DNA of 64,000 nt from assembly GCF_054482595.1 (NCBI RefSeq), contig NZ_CM137008.1; one strand, given 5' to 3'. The translations under genes and the position numbers were made by a program. Positions 137 through 24,609 of this stretch are shown in pieces. A model generated the notes under the pieces. That model was given only the letters and a program-made list of their open reading frames with translations. It was not told the origin of the DNA and did not search any database. Positions within the stretch are counted from its first letter, which is position 1. Every line of letters begins with the position of its first letter.

Positions 137-1636
137 TTAAGTTCTCCGTGCGATGGGCCTGATTGGGGCTGGTATCTTTTTCTCTTTTGGTTTTTTGATG
201 TCGCGCATCATTTTGGCGAAGCGGCGCATCATGTATGCATAGCGAACAGCTGAGAGAACGTCGTCGTTAAGCTTGACGATTTTCCCGTTTTCATCACGGT
301 GATAGAGGCGGAACTCCTCAAAGAATGGCTCACAGGTGTTGAATACTTTGAAGCGACCGTCGAGCATCATGTCTCGCAATTCAGTGATGCCAGGCTCAAC
401 AGCATTACCGCCATCAGGCCATGTCGCATGCTCCTGCAACATCATAAATCCAGCGTCTGCATACTGCCCTTTGAGCTGCTCACCGCCGCCCTTCTCGTGC
501 TGGTTTCCGTCATGAGGCCATGCTGTTGGCACTTTATGCGCCCATGATTTAACCGCTCCCCATGCCTGAACGGCTGTTTTTTCTTTCGCCTTCCACACGC
601 GTGAAACGTAGATTGTGTCTGCGTCCTTATCCCACCAAATCTGAACCTGCGCCTGCGGGTGATCCCATCCGAAATCCATCCCGCCAATTACGTAGAAGTG
701 ATCAGGACACTCGAACGGCTGACACTTAATCGTCTCTTCCGGTATCTGGAAGATTCGACCACTACCCATCGTAGGAATACCGCGAGCACGCGCCTCTCTC
801 TCATGCTCAGGATAGGATGCGATGATTTGCTCTTTCTGCTCGTCGGTATAGTGCTCAGCGTCATAGATGGTCATGTTGACCACTTTCTGCGACTTGCTGG
901 GATTCTTCAGGAACTTGGTAACAACGTCAGACATCCCCATCAGCGGGGTAAATGTCAGAATTGAGAATTGCCCGTATTTGTTGGTACGGGTAAGACCTTC
1001 GCCATAAATGCTGTATGGTGGCTCTTCGTCAAACCACACGCCGTGGATTGTGTCACCCTGCCAGCGAGCACGGCCTTGCGAGTATGGCTTGAAGTAGCAG
1101 ATTGAAATGCCATCTTCAACGCCATCAGCCGTGTGATGCTTAACCAGAAGATGATCAACAAGGTTCGGAAAGAAAGGAGACTTCTTCCAGCTAATGATGT
1201 CTTCTTTCGGTATGGAACCGTAGCCAGGCTCATCATTCTCTTCGATACGACCGCACAGGATGCGTTGAGTCGTTTTGGTTACAGTCTCGTTTGTCTCTCC
1301 ACCAATCCAGAAGACAACAGGCTCATAGAAACGCTTACCTTTCCACTCACCGCCATATTTACCATCAGCAGGATAGCCTTTTGTGCCCGGATAACGACCG
1401 GTAAGGTGAAACGCGACTTCAGCAGCACCAGTAAATGACTTACCAAGCTGGTTACCAGCCATAAAACATCGCTCTGGATAGTCATGCCCGGCGTCGATGA
1501 ACTCACGCTGCTTGCTGTATGGCGTAAATTCATATAGCAGGTGTGTGTTCCGGTAGTTCTCTTCTTCTTCGAGTAGCTCGAGCAACTCGATTTGCTCTTC
1601 GTCGCTCAGGTTATCAAGAATCGCGTCCAGTTCCAC
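137..1636 (-). CDS. Terminase large subunit (P22 gp2-like)
   Basis: 499 aa ORF; recalled match to P22 TerL; position after terS. Confidence 0.85.
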
Positions 1637-9584: not shown

Positions 9585-11036
9585 TCAGAATCCTCCTTTC
9601 TTCTTGGACTGCGGTTCCTCGCGTTCACGTCGGCGCATTTCAGCAGACTGTTGGTCTGTGTCATAAATAGCGCCATTTGCCTGAATGCAATACACCGTGC
9701 CGGTATTGCCATGACGATTGAGACGAAGGATTAGTTCGGTTTCACCAGGCGGAACACTGTCATCAAAAGCACCTTCACGATGGATCCCCACCCAATAATC
9801 GCAATCCTGTTCAATCTGCCCTGTATCGCGCGAGTCACTTGGTAATGGGCGTTTATTGGTTCGGCTTTCCAGTGCGCGGTTAAGCTGCGTCAGAAGCACA
9901 ACAACGCAATCAAGCTCTTTGGCAAGGTTCTTCAGTCCTTTGGTGATCATGCCGTAAGCAAGGTCGTTGCGATCGGCCTTCTCAGCGGTCATTAGTGTCA
10001 GGTAATCGACCAGAATCATGCCAACACATCCTTTTTCTCGCTTGATTCGACGGCTTTCGCTGACGATTTGAGCCAGAGATAATCCCGGCGTGTCGTCGAT
10101 GTAAAGCAGGTCGATTTCACTCAAGCGATTGGCTGTTTCGATCGCCCTGTTGAAGTCACCATCGTAATCACCCTGATAGCCGTCATCAGCGTCATTTGTC
10201 GCCGGAAGGTAAAAAATATTCGGGTTAACACCTGACTTCTGTCCCACCAGTTTTTCCAGTATCTGGTCACCTGGCATTTCAAGGCTGAACATCAGAGCGG
10301 GCTTTTTCTCATGCACTGCGCAGTTGATTGCCATCTGGCTGTATAGCGTCGTTTTCCCCATCTTAGGGCGAGCGCCAATGACAAACAGAGAGCCTTTCAC
10401 CAGACCTTTCGGTGACAGCATCCTGTCCAGCGATGGGATCCCTGTGCTCATTCCCCGTTGTTCGCCTGATGGGTCAAATCGCTTCTCAAGGTCGCTAACC
10501 CAGTCTTCCATGACCTCACCAAATGAACGAAGGCCGCGACGCGATCCGGTTTTTGCATGGTCTGTCAGTTGCGTGAAAATCGACTGAATAGCTTCGTACT
10601 TCTGCGTTGCAGTCATTCCGTTGCGGGAATAGAGCAATTCCGTCGCTTCAGTCATGCGGTTGATGGCGTAGCGTTCCATTGCGGTTTCACGAACCTGCAT
10701 TGCATAGGCAACGATGTTTGCGGCGCTTGGCGTGTTCTTTGCGATCTCAGCGATATAAGCAAAACCGCCAACAGACGCCGTTAACGATTTACGCTCCAGT
10801 TCATCGAAAAGCGTCAGGCCATCTACTGGCTTTTGCTCCCGGTGCATTCTGGTTATTTCTTCGAAAAGGATTTTGTGTGGCCGGCTGTAAAATGAGTCAG
10901 GCTTCAGCATCGCCAGAACTTTCTGGACGCGCTCACTGCTGTCATCATCCAGAAGCAATCCACCAATCACCGCCTGCTCTGCCTCGATGCTATGGGGCGG
11001 CGCATAAAAATTATCGGTCATCGTGTTCACCCTCAC
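9585..11036 (-). CDS. DnaB-family replicative helicase (P22 gene 12-type)
   Basis: 483 aa; DnaB N-terminal domain and Walker A GARPKMGKT. Confidence 0.85.
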   Translation of the reverse strand: MRVNTMTDNFYAPPHSIEAEQAVIGGLLLDDDSSERVQKVLAMLKPDSFYSRPHKILFEEITRMHREQKPVDGLTLFDELERKSLTASVGGFAYIAEIAKNTPSAANIVAYAMQVRETAMERYAINRMTEATELLYSRNGMTATQKYEAIQSIFTQLTDHAKTGSRRGLRSFGEVMEDWVSDLEKRFDPSGEQRGMSTGIPSLDRMLSPKGLVKGSLFVIGARPKMGKTTLYSQMAINCAVHEKKPALMFSLEMPGDQILEKLVGQKSGVNPNIFYLPATNDADDGYQGDYDGDFNRAIETANRLSEIDLLYIDDTPGLSLAQIVSESRRIKREKGCVGMILVDYLTLMTAEKADRNDLAYGMITKGLKNLAKELDCVVVLLTQLNRALESRTNKRPLPSDSRDTGQIEQDCDYWVGIHREGAFDDSVPPGETELILRLNRHGNTGTVYCIQANGAIYDTDQQSAEMRRREREEPQSKKKGGF

Positions 11037-12732: not shown

Positions 12733-12795
12733 ATAACTCAAGTTATAAAAATTAGCAATAACCTTTGTTATTTTACTTTGGATAACCGTAGTTAT
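12733..12795. promoter_or_regulatory. OR operator region: three ATAAC-N4-GTTAT palindromes
   Basis: Sites at 12733-12746, 12758-12771, 12782-12795, centres ~24-25 bp apart, between cro and cI. Confidence 0.5.
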
Positions 12796-12807
12796 AGATT
12801 TGTGGGT

Positions 12808-13515
12808 ATGAAAACATTCGCAGAAAGACTAAATGCAGCCATGAGCTCAGCAGGGGTATCACAATCACAGCTTGCTGACATGGTTGGAATATCTCAGCCA
12901 GCCATACAGAAGATGTCGTCCGGTAAAACAAACGGATCTCGCAAGATGGTTGAATTAGCCAATGCTTTAAAAGTGCGTCCTGAATGGCTTAGTTCTGGTA
13001 TTGGTGAAATGAGGGATGGTGCACATGAAGAACCATCCAATGTCCGTGAGTCATCTTTAAAAGCTGTGGTATGGGAAGACATTAAAAGAAACGATGACGA
13101 GTTTGTTGCGTTGCCTCTTCTTAACGTTTCGCTTTCAGCTGGAAGCGGTAGCTGCGAGCTAGAGGAATCATCGGAGTTCTCTTTGGTTTTCAGAAAGCAC
13201 TATCTGAAAAAGATGGGAGTATCTGAAAGATCAGCCAAGCTAGTTAGGGTTGTAGGGCAAAGCATGGAACCAACGCTTCACGATGGCGATGTTGTTGGTG
13301 TTAACACGCAAGATACCACAATCAGAGATGGTAAAACCTACGCTATTTGCCAGTCTGATTTGTTACGAGTAAAAACATTAATCGCCACCCCTACATCGGT
13401 GATAATCAGATCAATAAATCGCGAAGAGTACCCGGATGAAGTAATGGATAGAGATGAATTTCATAAAACCGTAAGGATTATTGGCAGAGTATTCTGGTCG
13501 TCTCATAGTTGGTAA
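12808..13515 (+). CDS. cI: CI-like repressor (HTH plus S24/LexA-like autocleavage domain)
   Basis: N-terminal HTH, C-terminal GQSMEPT...DGD motif; start set at first ATG of the TTG-initiated ORF. Confidence 0.8.
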   Translation: MKTFAERLNAAMSSAGVSQSQLADMVGISQPAIQKMSSGKTNGSRKMVELANALKVRPEWLSSGIGEMRDGAHEEPSNVRESSLKAVVWEDIKRNDDEFVALPLLNVSLSAGSGSCELEESSEFSLVFRKHYLKKMGVSERSAKLVRVVGQSMEPTLHDGDVVGVNTQDTTIRDGKTYAICQSDLLRVKTLIATPTSVIIRSINREEYPDEVMDRDEFHKTVRIIGRVFWSSHSW

Positions 13516-13757
13516 CCGATAATCAGAAGAAGACTTACGGAAGTGCGGAGGGATAATGGAATTTCTGATAGTTTTTGTTGTTGTTTTGGTCATCATTCTT
13601 TTTGTTTTGCTAAGCATTAGCAAAAAGCTATCTCAAATGATTGAACATAGCTCTAATCGCGCAAAATAGACTGGCCCCCTGAATCTCCAGACAACCAATA
13701 TCACTTATTTAAGTGATAGTCTTAATACTAGTTTTTAGACTAGTCATTGGAGAGCAG

Positions 13758-14123
13758 ATGATTGATGTCTTAGGACCGGAGAAACGCAGACGGCGTACTA
13801 CACAGGAAAAGATCGCTATTGTTCAGCAGAGTTTTGAACCGGGAATGACAGTCTCCCTTGTTGCCCGGCAACACGGTGTGGCAGCCAGCCAGTTATTTCT
13901 CTGGCGCAAGCAATACCAGGAGGGAAGTCTTACTGCTGTGGCCGCAGGAGAACAGGTCGTTCCTGCCTCTGAACTTGCTGCCGCCATGAAGCAGATTAAA
14001 GAACTCCAGCGCCTGCTCGGCAAAAAAACGATGGAAAATGAACTCCTTAAAGAAGCCGTTGAATACGGGCGTGCAAAAAAGTGGATAGCGCACGCGCCCT
14101 TATTGCCCGGGGATGGGGAGTAA
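13758..14123 (+). CDS. insC: IS2 transposase OrfA (InsC)
   Basis: 121 aa [26 protein letters not shown]..., matches IS2 InsC. Confidence 0.9.
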
Positions 14124-14986
14124 GCTTAGTCAGCCGTTGTCTCCGGGTGTCGCGTGCGCAGTTGCACGTCATTCTCAGACGAACCGATGACTGGAAAGAT
14201 GGTCGCCGCAGCCGTCACTCAGATGATACGGATGTGCTTCTCCGTATACACCATGTTATCGGAGAGCTGCCCACATATGGTTATCGTCGGGTATGGGCGC
14301 TGCTTCGCAGACAGGCCGAACTTGATGGTATGCCTGCGATCAATGCCAAACGTATTTACCGGATCATGCGCCAGAATGCGCTGTTGCTTGAGCGAAAACC
14401 CGCTGTACCGCCATCGAAACGGGCACATACCGGCAGAGTGGCTGTGAAAGAAAGTAATCAGCGATGGTGCTCTGACGGGTTCGAGTTCCGCTGTGATAAC
14501 GGAGAAAAACTGCGAGTCACGTTCGCGCTGGACTGCTGTGACCGTGAGGCACTGCACTGGGCGGTCACTACGGGCGGCTTCAACAGTGAAACAGTACAGG
14601 ACGTCATGCTGGGAGCGGTGGAACGCCGTTTCGGCAACGAGCTTCCGGCGTCTCCAGTAGAGTGGCTGACGGATAATGGTTCATGCTACCGGGCTAATGA
14701 AACACGGCAGTTTGCCCGGATGTTGGGGCTTGAACCGAAGAACACGGCGGTGCGGAGTCCGGAGAGTAACGGCATAGCAGAGAGCTTCGTGAAAACGATA
14801 AAGCGTGACTACATCAGTGTCATGCCCAAACCAGACGGGTTAACGGCAGCAAAGAACCTTGCAGAGGCATTCGAGCATTATAACGAATGGCATCCGCATA
14901 GTGCACTGGGTTATCGCTCGCCACGGGAATATCTACGGCAGCAAGCCAGTAATGGGTTAAGTGATAACAGGTGTCTGGAAATATAG
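14081..14986 (+). CDS. insD: IS2 transposase OrfB (InsD)
   Basis: 301 aa ORF overlapping insC as in IS2. Confidence 0.9.
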
Positions 14987-15385: not shown

Positions 15386-15424
15386 ATAAGTTAGGTTATT
15401 GACCACACCTATAACCTAAGTTAT
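15386..15424. promoter_or_regulatory. OL operator region: two ATAAC/G-N4-GTTAT sites flanking a putative pL -35 TTGACC
   Basis: Sites at 15386-15399 and 15411-15424, same half-sites as OR. Confidence 0.45.
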
Positions 15425-15472
15425 CTTTAAGCCATCAGCAGGACGCTGGTAGCCAAACGGAACAGATTGGCA

Positions 15473-16826: not shown

Positions 16827-16961
16827 GCACTGTGTATTCATTCCAACGAGTGAATACACGGAGCAATGTCGCTCGTAACTAAACAGGAGCCGACTTGTTC
16901 TGATTGTTGGAAATCTTCTTTGCCCTCCAGTGTGAGGGCAATTTTTTTTGATGGAGGATAT

Positions 16962-17930
16962 ATGAGTGAAGTAACAGATTTAGTTGTTATTGAAAAAGCA
17001 AATGCAATGACTGTATTTCAGTCTGCCGACCAGATTGAAGAAATTCTCCAAAAGGTTGAACGTGAAGTTATGTCATTTGTGCCTGATATCACAACGGCAA
17101 AGGGCAGAAAGGAGATCGCTTCTCTGGCGTATAAAGTTGCGCAGACGAAAACATATCTCGATGGTCTTGGCAAAGACCTTGTTGCTGAACTGAAGGAAAT
17201 TCCAAAGCTAATTGATGCCAACCGCAAGACAGTGCGCGATCGCCTTGATGAACTGAAAGCCAAGGCGCGCCAGCCTCTTACTGATTATGAGGAAGAACAG
17301 GCGCGGATTAAAGCCGAAGAAGAAGCTAAGGCAGCAGCTGAAGCTCTCGCAAAGCAAATTGAGTCTGACCATGAAATAGCGATTTTGATGGATCGCGAAT
17401 TTGACCGCCAAAGAGAAGAGGCAAGACTCAAAGCGGAGCAGGAAAAGCGAGAGCATGAAGAACGATTAAAAAGAGAAGCTGAAGAGAAAGCCAGAGCTGA
17501 AGCCGAAGCAAAGGCAAAAGCCGAAATTGAAGCAGCAGCAAGACGAGAAGCAGAGGCTAAGGCCGCAGCGGAACGTGCAGAGCGTGAACGCATTGAAGCC
17601 GAGCAACGAGCACAGCGCGAAGCAAAAGAGGCAGCAGAACGAGCTGAAAGAGAAAAGCATGCGGCAATTGAAGCAGAACGCCGTAAAGCACAGGAGGAGG
17701 CAGAACGAATCCGGCGCGAGGCTGAAGCAAAAGAGCAAGCCAGAATAGCAGAAGAAAAAAGAATCAAGGACGAAGAAGAGCGTAGAGCAAAGGATAAAGC
17801 TCACCGGAAAGAAGTAAATAACAAAATACTTGCTGACCTTATCAAGGTTGGCGCATCAGAAGATGTTGCTAAAAATATCATAACAGCCATCGTAAAAGGC
17901 GAAGTATTCGCAACAAAAATAACCTACTAA
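16962..17930 (+). CDS. Coiled-coil protein with long Ala/Glu/Lys/Arg-rich region
   Basis: Start set at Met after SD GGAGGA; central ~150 aa EAEAKAKAEIEAAARREAEAK-type repeats. Confidence 0.4.
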   Translation: MSEVTDLVVIEKANAMTVFQSADQIEEILQKVEREVMSFVPDITTAKGRKEIASLAYKVAQTKTYLDGLGKDLVAELKEIPKLIDANRKTVRDRLDELKAKARQPLTDYEEEQARIKAEEEAKAAAEALAKQIESDHEIAILMDREFDRQREEARLKAEQEKREHEERLKREAEEKARAEAEAKAKAEIEAAARREAEAKAAAERAERERIEAEQRAQREAKEAAERAEREKHAAIEAERRKAQEEAERIRREAEAKEQARIAEEKRIKDEEERRAKDKAHRKEVNNKILADLIKVGASEDVAKNIITAIVKGEVFATKITY

Positions 17931-18477: not shown

Positions 18478-19185
18478 ATGGATTTGAATAAATTCGATGA
18501 GCCATTCAGCCCTGAAGATATCGAATGGCGAATACAGCAAAGCGGTAAAACACGCGATGGCAAAGTGTGGGCTATGGTGCTGGCTTATGTCACGAACCGG
18601 GCAATCATGAAACGCCTGGACGATGTTTGCGGCAAAGCAGGATGGCGCAATGAATACCGCGATATTCCCAACAACGGCGGCGTTGAATGCGGCATATCAA
18701 TAAAGATTGATTCCGAATGGGTAACCAAATGGGATGCTGCTGAAAACACGCAGGTAGAAGCCGTCAAAGGTGGTCGTTCCGGTGCAATGAAGCGCGCTGC
18801 CGTTCAGTGGGGAATCGGTAGGTATCTGTATAACCTTGAGGAAGGTTTCGCACAAACATCTCTCGATAAAAAGCAGGGGTGGCACAGGGCAAAACTCAAG
18901 GATGGAACAGGATTTTACTGGCTCCCTCCATCGCTGCCGGGATGGGCAATCCCAGCATCAGATAACAAACCATCACCAGAAAATACCAACCAGAAATCTC
19001 CATCGGTTAACTGCGAACAAATCCTGAAAGACTTCAGCGATTATGCGTCAACAGAAACTGACAAGAAAAAACTCATCGAGCGTTATCAGCGTGACTGGCA
19101 ATTAATGGCTGGCAACGAGGAGGCGCAGGCTAAATGCGTTCAGGTAATGAACATCAGAGTTAACGAGCTAAAACAGGCGGCATAA
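18478..19185 (+). CDS. Putative single-strand annealing protein (Rad52-like)
   Basis: 235 aa immediately upstream of ssb in the position occupied by bet in lambda; family call tentative. Confidence 0.45.
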   Translation: MDLNKFDEPFSPEDIEWRIQQSGKTRDGKVWAMVLAYVTNRAIMKRLDDVCGKAGWRNEYRDIPNNGGVECGISIKIDSEWVTKWDAAENTQVEAVKGGRSGAMKRAAVQWGIGRYLYNLEEGFAQTSLDKKQGWHRAKLKDGTGFYWLPPSLPGWAIPASDNKPSPENTNQKSPSVNCEQILKDFSDYASTETDKKKLIERYQRDWQLMAGNEEAQAKCVQVMNIRVNELKQAA

Positions 19186-19659
19186 ATGGCAAGTAGAGGC
19201 GTAAATAAGGTGATCATTATTGGTCGCCTTGGGCATGATCCAGAAATCAGATATTCACCATCAGGAACGGCATTTGCAAACCTTACAGTTGCTACGTCAG
19301 AACAATGGCGTGATAAGAAAACTGGAGAGCAAAAGGAGCAGACGGAGTGGCACCGCGTGGTAATGAGCGGGAAACTGGCAGAAATTGCCAGCGAATATCT
19401 GCGAAAAGGCTCTGAGGTTTATCTTGAAGGAAAATTGCGGACAAGAAAATGGCAGGATCAAAGCGGACAGGATAGGTTCACTACCGAAGTCATCGTGGGC
19501 GTTGGTGGAACCATGCAAATGCTTGGTGGCAAGCAAGGAGGCAATGAACAGTCTTCACCTCAGCGAAATAACGGTCAGCAACAAAGACAGCAATCTCAGC
19601 AGCAGGGGAATCACAGCGAACCACCTATGAACTTCGACGATTCGGATATTCCGTTCTAG
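19186..19659 (+). CDS. ssb: Single-stranded DNA-binding protein
   Basis: 157 aa; OB-fold region nearly identical to E. coli SSB; Gln/Gly-rich tail ending DIPF. Confidence 0.9.
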
Positions 19660-19668
19660 GAGCTGAAT

Positions 19669-20148
19669 ATGAAAATCTGCTCAAGATGCCATCAACAGAA
19701 GGAAGAAAGGGACTTTCAAATCAGAAGAGCATCCAGAGATGGATTAACTGCCGCTTGCCGGGCTTGCCTGGCTGAATATGACAAAGAGCGCGCGGGATTG
19801 CCACATCGAGTATCAGCAAGGAGAAAATATCAATCATCGGAACGCGGAAGAGAACGGTGTAACGCAGCCAAAAAGCGGTTCATTCAGAGCAACCCATGGA
19901 AAAGAAAAGCCCACATCATCGTGGGTAATTTTTTGCGCGACGGTAAGCTAATCCGACCACCACAATGTGAGTGCTGCGGATCAGAATGTAAACCACAGTC
20001 GCACCACTGCGACTACAGCAAACCAACCGATGTGATGTGGCTCTGCAAGTCATGTCATGTCGAGTGGCACAAACATAACAAACCTATCTACCCAGACGAG
20101 GAACCAGTAACTCTCCCCTTCCCTCGTCACGCTATTCACGCAATTTAA
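19669..20148 (+). CDS. Zn-ribbon/HNH-type nuclease-like protein
   Basis: CSRCH and CRAC N-terminal motifs; C-terminal SHHCDYSKP...WLCKSCHVEWH resembles the HNH His-Me finger. Confidence 0.45.
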   Translation: MKICSRCHQQKEERDFQIRRASRDGLTAACRACLAEYDKERAGLPHRVSARRKYQSSERGRERCNAAKKRFIQSNPWKRKAHIIVGNFLRDGKLIRPPQCECCGSECKPQSHHCDYSKPTDVMWLCKSCHVEWHKHNKPIYPDEEPVTLPFPRHAIHAI

Positions 20149-20156
20149 GGACTTAC

Positions 20157-20705
20157 ATGAATCACTTGATGGTTGACCTTGAAACAATGGGCAACGGGCC
20201 ATACGCGCCAGTTATTTCTATTGGGGCGGTATTCTTTGATCCGAATACCGGAGAAACAGGAGAAGAGTTCTCGGTAAATATCTCGCTTGAATCATCAATG
20301 CGATATCGAGCGCGTCCTGACGCTTCAACGATTTTATGGTGGCTGGAACAGAGTGAAGAAGCCAGAAAATCGCTAACCAGCAACACTCAGGAGCTTTCAA
20401 CGGCTCTTTCATGGTTATCTGAATTCATCATAAAGAACGCTAACCACAAATTCGTTCAGGTTTGGGGGAATGGAGCATCATTTGACTGCGTTATTCTCCG
20501 AAACAGTTATTCGCTGACAGGGCAGCCAGTTCCGTGGCAGTGGTGGAATGACCGCGACGTAAGAACAATCGTCGAACTTGGGAAGGTAATAGGATTCGAC
20601 CCTAAGCGAGATATGCCATTCAAAGGAACTCGCCACAACGCTCTTGATGATGCCATTCACCAAGCCAAATACGTTTCAGCGATCTGGAAAAAGTTAGCTA
20701 AATAA
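20157..20705 (+). CDS. DEDDh-type 3'-5' exonuclease
   Basis: MVDLETMG (Exo I) and HNALDDA (Exo III) motifs. Confidence 0.65.
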   Translation: MNHLMVDLETMGNGPYAPVISIGAVFFDPNTGETGEEFSVNISLESSMRYRARPDASTILWWLEQSEEARKSLTSNTQELSTALSWLSEFIIKNANHKFVQVWGNGASFDCVILRNSYSLTGQPVPWQWWNDRDVRTIVELGKVIGFDPKRDMPFKGTRHNALDDAIHQAKYVSAIWKKLAK

Positions 20706-20721
20706 TCAACAGGAGAAAACC

Positions 20722-21018
20722 ATGCCAGCGCCTCTGTATGGTGCGGATGACCCGCGCCGCTGTTCCGGCAATTCCGTATCGGAGGTGCTGGATAAATTCA
20801 GAAAAAACTACGATCGGATAATGTCGCTACCTCAGGAAACGAAAGAGGAAAAGGAATTTCGCCATTGTATATGGCTTGCAGAGAAAGAAGAACGCGAGCG
20901 AATTTACCAGACATCAATCCGACCATTCCGCAAAGCCACATATACCCACTTCCCTGAATATATCGACCCGCGCCTGCGTAATTACCGCTCACGCTATGGC
21001 GCTATCAGTAATGACTGA
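20722..21018 (+). CDS. Hypothetical phage protein
   Basis: 98 aa ORF, no recognised family. Confidence 0.3.
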
Positions 21019-23342: not shown

Positions 23343-23561
23343 ATGTACTTGACACTTCAGGAGTGGAACGCACGCCAGCGACGCCCAAGAAGCCTTGAAA
23401 CAGTTCGTCGATGGGTACGCGAGTGCAGGATATTCCCTCCTCCGGTTAAGGATGGAAGAGAGTATCTGTTCCACGAATCAGCGGTAAAGGTTGACTTAAA
23501 TCGACCAGTAACAGGTAGCCTTTTGAAGAGGATCAGAAATGGGAAGAAGGCGAAGTCATGA
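23343..23561 (+). CDS. xis: Excisionase (lambda Xis)
   Basis: 72 aa MYLTLQEWNARQRRPRSLETVRRWVRE..., matches recalled lambda Xis. Confidence 0.9.
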   Translation: MYLTLQEWNARQRRPRSLETVRRWVRECRIFPPPVKDGREYLFHESAVKVDLNRPVTGSLLKRIRNGKKAKS

Positions 23562-24609
23562 GCGCCGGGATTTACCCCCTAACCTTTATATAAGAAACAA
23601 TGGATATTACTGCTACAGGGACCCAAGGACGGGTAAAGAGTTTGGATTAGGCAGAGACAGGCGAATCGCAATCACTGAAGCCATACAGGCCAACATTGAG
23701 TTATTTTCAGGACACAAACACAAGCCTCTGACAGCGAGAATCAACAGTGATAATTCCGTTACGTTACATTCATGGCTTGATCGCTACGAAAAAATCCTGG
23801 CCAGCAGAGGAATCAAGCAGAAGACACTCATAAATTACATGAGCAAAATTAAAGCAATACGGGGGGGGCTGCCTGATGCTCCACTTGAAGACATCACCAC
23901 AAAAGAAATTGCGGCAATGCTCAATGGATACATAGACGAGGGCAAGGCGGCGTCAGCCAAGTTAATCAGATCAACACTGAGCGATGCATTCCGAGAGGCA
24001 ATAGCTGAAGGCCATATAACAACAAACCCTGTCGCTGCCACTCGCGCAGCAAAATCAGAGGTAAGGAGATCAAGACTTACGGCTGACGAATACCTGAAAA
24101 TTTATCAAGCAGCAGAATCATCACCATGTTGGCTCAGACTTGCAATGGAACTGGCTGTTGTTACCGGGCAACGAGTTGGTGATTTATGCGAAATGAAGTG
24201 GTCTGATATCGTAGATGGATATCTTTATGTCGAGCAAAGCAAAACAGGCGTAAAAATTGCCATCCCAACAACATTGCATGTTGATGCTCTCGGGATATCA
24301 ATGAAGGAAACACTCGATAAATGCAAAGAGATTCTTGGCGGAGAAACCATAATTGCATCTACTCGTCGTGAACCGCTTTCATCCGGCACAGTATCAAGGT
24401 ATTTTATGCGCGCACGAAAAGCATCAGGTCTTTCCTTCGAAGGGGATCCGCCTACCTTTCACGAGTTGCGCAGTTTGTCTGCAAGACTCTATGAGAAGCA
24501 GATAAGCGATAAGTTTGCTCAACATCTTCTCGGGCATAAGTCGGACACCATGGCATCACAGTATCGTGATGACAGAGGCAGGGAGTGGGACAAAATTGAA
24601 ATCAAATAA
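23539..24609 (+). CDS. int: Tyrosine integrase (lambda Int)
   Basis: 356 aa; matches recalled lambda Int; overlaps xis as in lambda. Confidence 0.95.
   Translation: MGRRRSHERRDLPPNLYIRNNGYYCYRDPRTGKEFGLGRDRRIAITEAIQANIELFSGHKHKPLTARINSDNSVTLHSWLDRYEKILASRGIKQKTLINYMSKIKAIRGGLPDAPLEDITTKEIAAMLNGYIDEGKAASAKLIRSTLSDAFREAIAEGHITTNPVAATRAAKSEVRRSRLTADEYLKIYQAAESSPCWLRLAMELAVVTGQRVGDLCEMKWSDIVDGYLYVEQSKTGVKIAIPTTLHVDALGISMKETLDKCKEILGGETIIASTRREPLSSGTVSRYFMRARKASGLSFEGDPPTFHELRSLSARLYEKQISDKFAQHLLGHKSDTMASQYRDDRGREWDKIEIK

Follow-up and report, generated by a model that had tools for sequence, protein, structure and literature searches.

Do two adjacent nuclease genes in the recombination module of a lambdoid prophage work as a pair, or are they independent neighbours? 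The question is raised by a 64,000-nt stretch of contig NZ_CM137008.1 (assembly GCF_054482595.1; hereafter the window), of which a lambdoid prophage fills the first ~24.7 kb. Here, a gene for a small cysteine-rich (Cys-rich) protein and a gene for a DEDDh 3'-5' exonuclease follow each other between ssb, encoding the single-stranded DNA-binding protein (SSB), and abc2. The original prediction, made from the sequence, described an HNH-like protein and a DnaQ-like exonuclease behind a Rad52-like annealing protein and SSB, and suggested a recombination/processing pair or an anti-host module. Its description of the locus holds. Translation of the open reading frames (ORFs) confirms two adjacent, co-oriented genes (Table 1), the motif QSHHCDYSKPTDVMWLCKSCHVEWH is found in the Cys-rich ORF and DLET and HNALDDA in the exonuclease ORF, and profile matches support both upstream genes. 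The nuclease pair is not supported, since all four configurations occur in phages, co-occurrence in E. coli is at chance level and the two genes have separate junctions. Judging by the enzyme identities and the independent assortment, the ssb-abc2 slot probably holds two independent, optional nuclease cassettes in a module of a known type.

Phages with near-identical flanks carry the two genes in every combination. Both are present in Bas106, over a whole 2.5-kb module with 98.4% identity. Sf6 (gene 26), IME10 and N7 have only the HNH gene, mEp235, mEpX2, epsilon34 (gene 34), g341c and NM-3 only the exonuclease gene, and ECP1, HZ41, HK75 and CP-1639 neither. The slot can also hold a second HNH allele, 47% identical, which occurs both with the exonuclease and without it. 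Among 5,426 complete E. coli genomes, the HNH gene was found in 97, the exonuclease gene in 151 and both, adjacent to each other, in 35, and a junction lacking the exonuclease in 372. By chance, 28–34 genomes with both genes are expected (odds ratio 1.04–1.51, p = 0.90–0.11, not significant), a range that depends on how the class with neither gene, obtained by subtraction, is counted. As the observed co-occurrence is approximately that of chance, there is no sign of coupling. The junctions differ as well. Aligned to Sf6 and ECP1, the exonuclease gene is a clean insertion or deletion between a TAA stop codon and the ribosome-binding site of abc2, unlike the HNH cassette, whose right border lies inside coding sequence. 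Three points weigh against independence: the counts were made per genome and not per locus, E. coli genomes are not phylogenetically independent, and the order ssb, HNH gene, exonuclease gene, abc2 recurs in three HNH-allele backgrounds (the window; loci L009 and L011; locus L021, 69% identity). This recurrent order could reflect a mild benefit of carrying both genes, given the upper odds ratio of 1.5.

Four parts can be distinguished in the 159-residue Cys-rich protein: a zinc ribbon (residues 1–35; C4, C7, C30, C33), four helices (36–90), an HNH/beta-beta-alpha-metal domain (91–141; C100, C103, H112, H113, D121, C126, C129, H130, H134) and a disordered tail (142–159). An AlphaFold model (mean predicted local distance difference test score, pLDDT, of 93) likewise has an N-terminal zinc ribbon, four helices, a beta-beta-alpha unit at 110–136, consisting of a two-strand hairpin followed by a helix, and an unstructured tail. 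The motif layout, C100-x2-C103 ... H112-H113 ... D121 ... C126-x2-C129-H130 ... H134, is that of Cys4-zinc HNH nucleases. In 28 homologues, C4, C30, C33, G92, C100, C103, H112, H113, Y116 and L125 are invariant, and C7, D115, P119, V122, W124, C126, H130 and H134 nearly so. The invariance of H112 and H113 and the conservation of H130 and H134 (at least 90%) are seen again in 102 distant members, with the catalytic and metal-binding roles of these histidines being assigned from the motif layout and not from residue-level superposition. Five residues ahead of the second CxxC, where the H-N-H motif has Asn, the window protein has D121 and most homologues have Asp or Glu; variants at this position are known in the His-Me finger superfamily. 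Active-site mapping, which had been suggested for this protein, finds the HNH catalytic core intact (Cys4 zinc site, H112-H113, D121 and H134).

Curated profiles make no such assignment. The Cys-rich protein has no Pfam or NCBIfam match, and Pfam HNH models match none of the 130 family members (28 close ones at E≤1 and 102 distant ones at E≤0.01), a result that speaks against the HNH identification. PDB searches with the protein and with the family profile returned weak zinc-ribbon matches only, among them Hpy99I (E = 0.13) on the N-terminal ribbon. The protein belongs to phrog_2340, labelled ‘endonuclease’ in PHROGs, and a search with the domain profile retrieved 37,629 cluster representatives. 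Based on the modelled fold and the motifs, the Cys-rich protein is identified as a putative HNH nuclease, comparable to the Cys4-zinc beta-beta-alpha-metal enzymes EcoKMcrA, the T5 nickase SciA, Gme HNH, GVE2 HNH and P1 Ref. RefSeq annotation (PGAP) lacks a feature over this ORF, leaving a gap of ~500 bp between ssb and the exonuclease gene or abc2; none of the 97 carrying E. coli genomes has a RefSeq feature under the match, and the records of phages IME10 and N7 also have no annotated gene here.

The identity of the second gene is clearer. The 182-residue exonuclease matches PF16473 (Rv2179c-like) over residues 2–177 (E = 2.9e-73, 245.7 bits against a cut-off of 27) and T4 DexA (PDB 8KEL) over residues 4–161 (phmmer, E = 9.5e-14); Pfam names PF16473 an exoribonuclease family, and the closest solved relative, T4 DexA, is a DNase. 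All five catalytic DEDDh residues (D7, E9, D110, H160, D165) are intact and conserved in 111–113 of 113 homologues that are 57–98% identical. These matches bear out the predicted DEDDh exonuclease, and the ORF encodes an intact homologue of T4 DexA, with its activity predicted. W130 aligns with DexA W152 (8KEL/8KEN) and is present in 94 of the 113 homologues. The two enzymes differ in length (182 against 227 residues), the window exonuclease lacking the extra loops and the tetramer region around DexA D90, which falls in an alignment gap; DexA D169 aligns, ambiguously, with F147, next to D148. In addition, the window exonuclease is encoded by a temperate phage with unmodified DNA.

Both ORFs are taken to be real genes and not chance ORFs, because both have many homologues (48 close ones for the Cys-rich protein, more than 3,800 for the exonuclease) and are under purifying selection, with ratios of nonsynonymous to synonymous substitution (dN/dS) of ~0.13, against a Cronobacter homologue, and ~0.08, respectively. 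A dN/dS of ~1 for the last 15 residues of the Cys-rich protein was discarded, since the tails of the window and Cronobacter proteins are not homologous and the value is meaningless. The 3' third to half of the exonuclease gene also matches 4,180 of the 5,426 E. coli genomes, at ~70–75% DNA identity and in up to eight places per genome. At the inspected loci (L006:1074-3545; L008:799-3270), the matching DNA encodes the C-terminal part of a prophage ‘exonuclease’ of 823 aa, whose gene lies between dicB/ydfD and xis/int; an exonuclease-like gene of 189 aa stands alone next to xis/int in Nissle 1917 (L007:2692-3261).

Next, the HNH gene was compared with the alleles of ssb. Phages lacking this gene have its last 46 bp, which read PVTLPFPRHAIHAI up to the stop codon, as the 3' end of ssb. 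In these phages, the 3' end of ssb reads ...ATGGATTTTGACGACGATATACCCTTTGCACCAGTA... and SSB is longer, ending PPMDFDDDIPF-APVTLPFPRHAIHAI before the stop codon; the SSB of mEp235 ends in ...MDFDDDIPFAPVTLPFPRHAIHAI. In E. coli genomes, the DNA of the 46-bp tail is annotated as ssb. The same extension motif, AP[VI]xLxxxRHAIxxI, is also found after DDDIPF in SSBs from prophages of Klebsiella, Proteus, Salmonella and Tatumella. In the metagenomic phage L019, it follows DDDVPF in an unrelated 324-aa protein, and a homologous HNH gene comes after the extension. Over the SSBs of E. coli, Salmonella, Klebsiella, Proteus and Tatumella and the 324-aa protein, the 15-residue extension, which many prophage SSBs carry behind the canonical acidic tip, can be written, tip included, as MDFDDDIPF-AP[VI]xL[PQ][FYH]x[RN]H[AF]Ixx[IL]; it was seen at the tail of the HNH gene in the window (Table 1), at L003:3209-3715 and at L019:2534-3508.

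Because the motif is shared by SSBs of several genera and by the L019 protein, the SSB extension is taken as ancestral. In the E. coli lineage, the HNH gene interrupts this ancestral frame of ssb immediately behind the DIPF codon. The SSB of the window therefore has a free DIPF end, while the 15-residue extension is read as the unstructured tail of the nuclease. Where it is retained, the extension should bury the normally free C-terminal Phe of SSB. The string DIPFAP was not found in a literature text search. The opposite polarity, with the ‘empty’ allele derived by loss of the HNH gene and the SSB tail left over from the nuclease, was rejected as the main explanation, as the tail motif is conserved in SSBs of several genera and recurs in L019. 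Secondary deletions of the HNH gene do occur (P0011, P0014).

The flanks of the insertion agree with a mobile gene. The OB-fold part of SSB (first 115 residues) has 97–99% protein identity to that of HNH-less ECP1 and HZ41, and, as is seen for homing genes, nearly identical flanks occur with and without the HNH gene, which is inserted within the conserved ssb. The HNH gene is accompanied by a short divergent patch in the last ~30 nt of ssb, where HNH-less alleles have a different sequence (ATGGAKTTTGACGACGATATACCYTTT). This patch resembles the one linked to the second HNH allele in L010, and relative to the empty alleles the two have synonymous changes in common. The second allele has its own tip variant, MNFDDEIPF, on an ssb similar to that of mEp235. 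Overall, nine of 14 HNH carriers have non-canonical SSB tips. The tips recorded next to HNH genes include DDSDIPF, DDEIPF, DDDQDIPF, DSDIPF, DDTDIPF, SDDVPF, DDSIPF and DDDIPFN (in the window, at the patch; L010:3524-3985), and HNH-less SSBs with the extension have the tip DFDDDIPF, or EFDDDIPF in one case. An altered acidic tip in every HNH-linked SSB, as a signature of target immunity, was also considered and failed on three control phages.

Full-length relatives of the Cys-rich protein, such as the 48 close homologues, nearly always lie at the 3' end of a phage ssb. The HNH family is directly downstream of ssb in 14 of 16 sampled contexts, down to 38% identity, including three of six control phages chosen by SSB similarity alone. 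This synteny is seen whether the annealing protein is Rad52, Erf or Sak4, and with either of two SSB families. Decayed and fused copies, with fusions and frameshifts, were found as P0007, P0011, P0014, P0020 and P0036. In P0014, an SSB::HNH fusion joins at an IVG sequence, in the region of a hairpin at 19909–19926, which suggests a deletion at a short repeat (VIVG) shared with ssb. Locus L010 carries a further, unrelated HNH gene (PF13392 HNH_3 with a helix-turn-helix; L010:3060-3527) between its Rad52-like gene and ssb, and so has two different nuclease genes in neighbouring junctions, the Cys-rich one being that after ssb.

The presence or absence on near-identical flanks, the insertion in the ssb frame, the divergent patch, the fused and frameshifted copies and the further, unrelated HNH gene of L010 together give the Cys-rich gene a homing-like look. 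From this, we infer that it would be a mobile endonuclease gene of the homing type, whose product cuts or nicks at or near the 3' end of ssb in phages that lack it. Free-standing homing endonuclease genes are known from T4-like phages, such as seg, mob and, splitting nrdA in Aeromonas phage Aeh1, mobE. The window gene is similar to these in being a small nuclease gene that is present or absent on near-identical flanks, splits a conserved gene without destroying it and has a divergent patch at its junction. It is unlike seg and mob genes in that the family is nearly always found at one kind of site, the 3' end of ssb, and homing would be by analogy here.

Some observations count against the homing interpretation. 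The altered tip is not universal, since Sortsne, C130_2 and Yersinia 30.14 have a canonical DFDDDIPF, and the synteny with ssb remains constant at 38% identity, which is unusual for a purely selfish homing gene, relatives of which are usually scattered over many sites, and would fit a functional link to SSB equally well. The HNH protein could accordingly be non-selfish and serve recombination as a nuclease partner of SSB. Recruited, for example, to DNA coated with SSB, it would cleave branched intermediates or displaced strands, much as P1 Ref, also an HNH protein, acts with RecA. A role of this kind is possible but the less probable alternative, as the gene is found in only about one fifth of otherwise near-identical modules, is inserted in the ssb frame so that SSB loses a conserved motif, is flanked by a short divergent patch and is often decayed, and as in L010 an unrelated HNH gene is lodged in the adjoining junction of the module. 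For the HNH gene, an origin of the homing type competes closely with a recombination role linked to SSB.

Whether the two genes are expressed together depends on the operon in which they lie. The locus is placed in the early-left operon, because the start of the window is a lambdoid prophage with a cI-like repressor gene and an integrase gene positioned accordingly, and between these two genes lies a lambdoid recombination module of the Sf6/P22 type with a Rad52-like protein, SSB, two nucleases and the anti-RecBCD protein Abc2 (18478–21018; Table 1). The abc2 gene, directly downstream of the exonuclease gene, was absent from the original prediction. Bas106 and Sf6 have a matching gene order, with cIII and kil upstream. 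All module genes are on the + strand, are separated by gaps of 8–16 nt (8 nt between the HNH and exonuclease genes) and are each preceded by a Shine-Dalgarno sequence.

Table 1 Features of the prophage and of the nuclease slot in the window
Feature	Coordinates	Strand	Evidence or remark
Terminase	137-1636		Prophage
DnaB-like helicase	9585-11036		Prophage
cI-like repressor	12778-13515		Prophage
Promoter-like site TTGACC-17-TATCTT	15399..15427	+	Consensus match; candidate pL of early-left operon
Rad52/Rad22-family single-strand annealing protein	18478..19185	+	PF04098 E=5e-26; phrog_1097 E=8e-130
SSB, 157 aa, ends in free acidic tip	19186..19659	+	PF00436 E=3e-38; translation
Divergent patch, ssb 3' end	19627..19659	+	Travels with HNH gene
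Cys-rich zinc-ribbon/HNH protein, 159 aa	19669..20148	+	
46-bp tail of HNH gene	20103..20148	+	Alignment to ssb 3' end of HNH-less phages
DEDDh 3'-5' exonuclease, Rv2179c-like / T4 DexA family, 182 aa	20157..20705	+	PF16473, phmmer, catalytic residues
Abc2 anti-RecBCD protein, P22 type; right border of nuclease slot	20722..21018	+	PF11043 E=4e-62; phrog_656
Lambda-type integrase	23539-24609		Adjoins pectinesterase-family host gene

A consensus scan found no promoter-like site and no convincing terminator from 18253 to the integrase gene, and neither a promoter nor a strong terminator between the HNH and exonuclease genes. A terminator-like hairpin with a T-run inside the HNH ORF, the one at 19909–19926, is weak and overlies the conserved codons for AHIIVGNFLRD, and was taken as chance. 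Since an internal promoter was not found, both cassettes are read as part of the early-left operon, which also includes an N-like ORF. The co-transcription expected in the original prediction is therefore likely, as judged from the scan. The site at 15399–15427 is the only promoter-like site on the + strand from an insertion sequence (IS) to the N-like ORF. This IS3-family element (13713–14986; an HTH_Tnp_1 ORF and an overlapping rve integrase-core ORF) lies inside the prophage, between the cI-like repressor gene and the N-like ORF; as the promoter-like site is downstream of it, early-left expression may persist. A 354-aa ORF (16866–17930) with a long coiled-coil stretch rich in Glu, Ala, Lys and Arg precedes the recombination genes in the same operon. 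It is the counterpart of Sf6 gene 33, matches phrog_1376 (function unknown) and has a RefSeq homologue labelled TolA-like.

A dedicated pair could be imagined in which the HNH protein nicks or cuts and the exonuclease resects, producing single-stranded DNA for SSB and the Rad52-like protein in place of lambda Exo. The two genes are adjacent and co-oriented with a signal-free gap of 8 nt, they keep the same order in divergent lineages (L011, L021), and T4 offers a precedent, DexA being involved in repair started by the homing endonuclease I-TevI (PMC12153337). Moreover, Pantoea and metagenomic modules join a homologous HNH gene with a different, ExoX-like DEDDh exonuclease. These modules (L012:1909-4498; L022:402-3019) encode the ExoX-like enzyme, a Sak4-like annealing protein and a phrog_743 SSB with a DDDIPFN end, followed by the HNH gene, and appear to be another combination of an HNH protein and a 3'-5' exonuclease made from non-homologous parts. 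A dedicated pair is nevertheless unlikely. Viable phages carry either gene alone (Sf6; epsilon34 and mEp235) or neither (HK75, ECP1), co-occurrence in E. coli is at chance level, and the two cassettes have separate, unrelated junctions. Also, among 325 lambdoid phages only three modules had two genes of the same function, none of them combining a DnaQ-like and an HNH nuclease (PMC12315714). Where both independent cassettes are present, their products could still cooperate, with a cut followed by 3'-5' resection as for I-TevI and DexA in T4, and neither would need the other.

On its own, the exonuclease may act in lytic growth by trimming 3' ends or flaps, or by resecting ends for Rad52-like annealing. 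Enzymes that degrade DNA 3'-5' can, in general, uncover complementary strands where the ends are terminally redundant, or remove 3' flaps once annealing has taken place. Alternatively, it might serve the prophage as a defence, either against the 5-hydroxymethylcytosine (5hmC) DNA of T-even phages or by trimming the 3' ends of RNA phages. EcD, an E. coli homologue of DexA, cut 5hmC DNA only and protected against T4 when expressed from a plasmid, for which a defence named ‘HREX’ was proposed (PMC12153337). As explained in the same paper, DexA itself scavenges host DNA and degrades 3'-5' in I-TevI-initiated repair. The window exonuclease is homologous to DexA, has the equivalent of W152 (in DexA a residue of 5hmC recognition, as is D169) and, like EcD, is short and without the tetramer aspartate D90. 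Bacterial DEDDh exonucleases on prophages and plasmids were furthermore reported to block MS2 and Qbeta (PMC13344964).

Such a defence is improbable here, since several points separate the window exonuclease from these systems. Its gene lies deep in the early-left operon and has no promoter-like site of its own, for which a consensus scan is weak evidence, and it should for this reason be silent in the lysogen. EcD is a different homologue with other termini (starting MIDTET and ending TIPETY), was tested from a plasmid only, and the enzymes acting on RNA phages belong to an ISG20-like branch and not to PF16473. EcD (HAK9828821.1) is represented in the supplement by primer sequences only, and none of the fetched proteins or loci matched these. 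PADLOC assigned neither protein to a defence system beyond two matches of the exonuclease, a weak hit at E = 2e-4 to a generic model of a CRISPR-associated DEDDh enzyme and, at E = 1.4e-3, a marginal hit to a model of exonuclease effectors. A role of the exonuclease in the lysogen is doubtful. The anti-host module of the original prediction, in which one or both nucleases would degrade host DNA in lytic growth for nucleotides or host shut-down, has in its favour the classical scavenging role of DexA (PMC12153337), the predicted early expression of both genes and the fact that an HNH nickase and an exonuclease could in principle degrade a chromosome, and it is very unlikely, since both genes are dispensable and sporadic, their placement among SSB, annealing protein and Abc2 points to recombination, and temperate lambdoid phages are not known to degrade host DNA.

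Both nuclease types were already described in lambdoid modules, which makes the finding as given mostly ordinary. According to a survey of 325 lambdoid phages (Genome Res 2025; PMC12315714), recombination modules contain four nuclease types, including a DnaQ-like 3'-5' exonuclease (epsilon34) and an HNH nuclease (ES18), and the HNH genes were flagged as mobile. The window has the same early-left position and gene set as the ES18-type Rec modules of that survey (anti-RecBCD protein, SSB, nuclease and annealing protein), sharing with them the Rad52-family annealing protein, a bacterial-type SSB and Abc2, and its nuclease types are among those named there. It differs in carrying both nuclease types, an arrangement that is rare in E. 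coli (35 of 5,426 genomes) but matches chance. Among single phages, Sf6 gene 26 has ~99% DNA identity to the Cys-rich gene, and Sf6 has the HNH gene only. In epsilon34, with the exonuclease only, the ssb tail through gene 34 has ~90% DNA identity to the window, mostly over the exonuclease gene; the nuclease of gene 34 was called ‘unusual in this context’ (PMC2629481). The arrangement of the window is identical in Bas106, where genes 0032/0031 are annotated as endonuclease and exonuclease. The genes of these three phages are known from sequence alone.

As the ssb-abc2 slot is filled combinatorially, adjacency within it should not be read as functional coupling. For annotation, it matters that a conserved nuclease gene of 159 codons under purifying selection lacks a RefSeq feature, and that Pfam offers no model for its domain family, which numbers more than 37,000 cluster representatives. 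None of the sources consulted describes an HNH family specialised on ssb, which, along with the conserved extension of SSB, appears new and offers a modest lead. The link between the HNH family and the 3' end of ssb, with the severed extension, could bring to light either a homing target or an SSB C-terminus partner not known so far, and may be relevant to recombineering that combines SSB with Rad52-like or Erf proteins. Tentatively, a very large HNH family may have specialised on phage ssb, either as a homing endonuclease targeting the highly conserved DNA of the SSB acidic tip (PPMDFDDDIPF) or as a nuclease recruited by that tip, with its insertion and loss switching SSB between a free DIPF end and an end capped by the extension. 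If this is true, a mobile nuclease gene would rewire the interaction end of a core replication and recombination protein.

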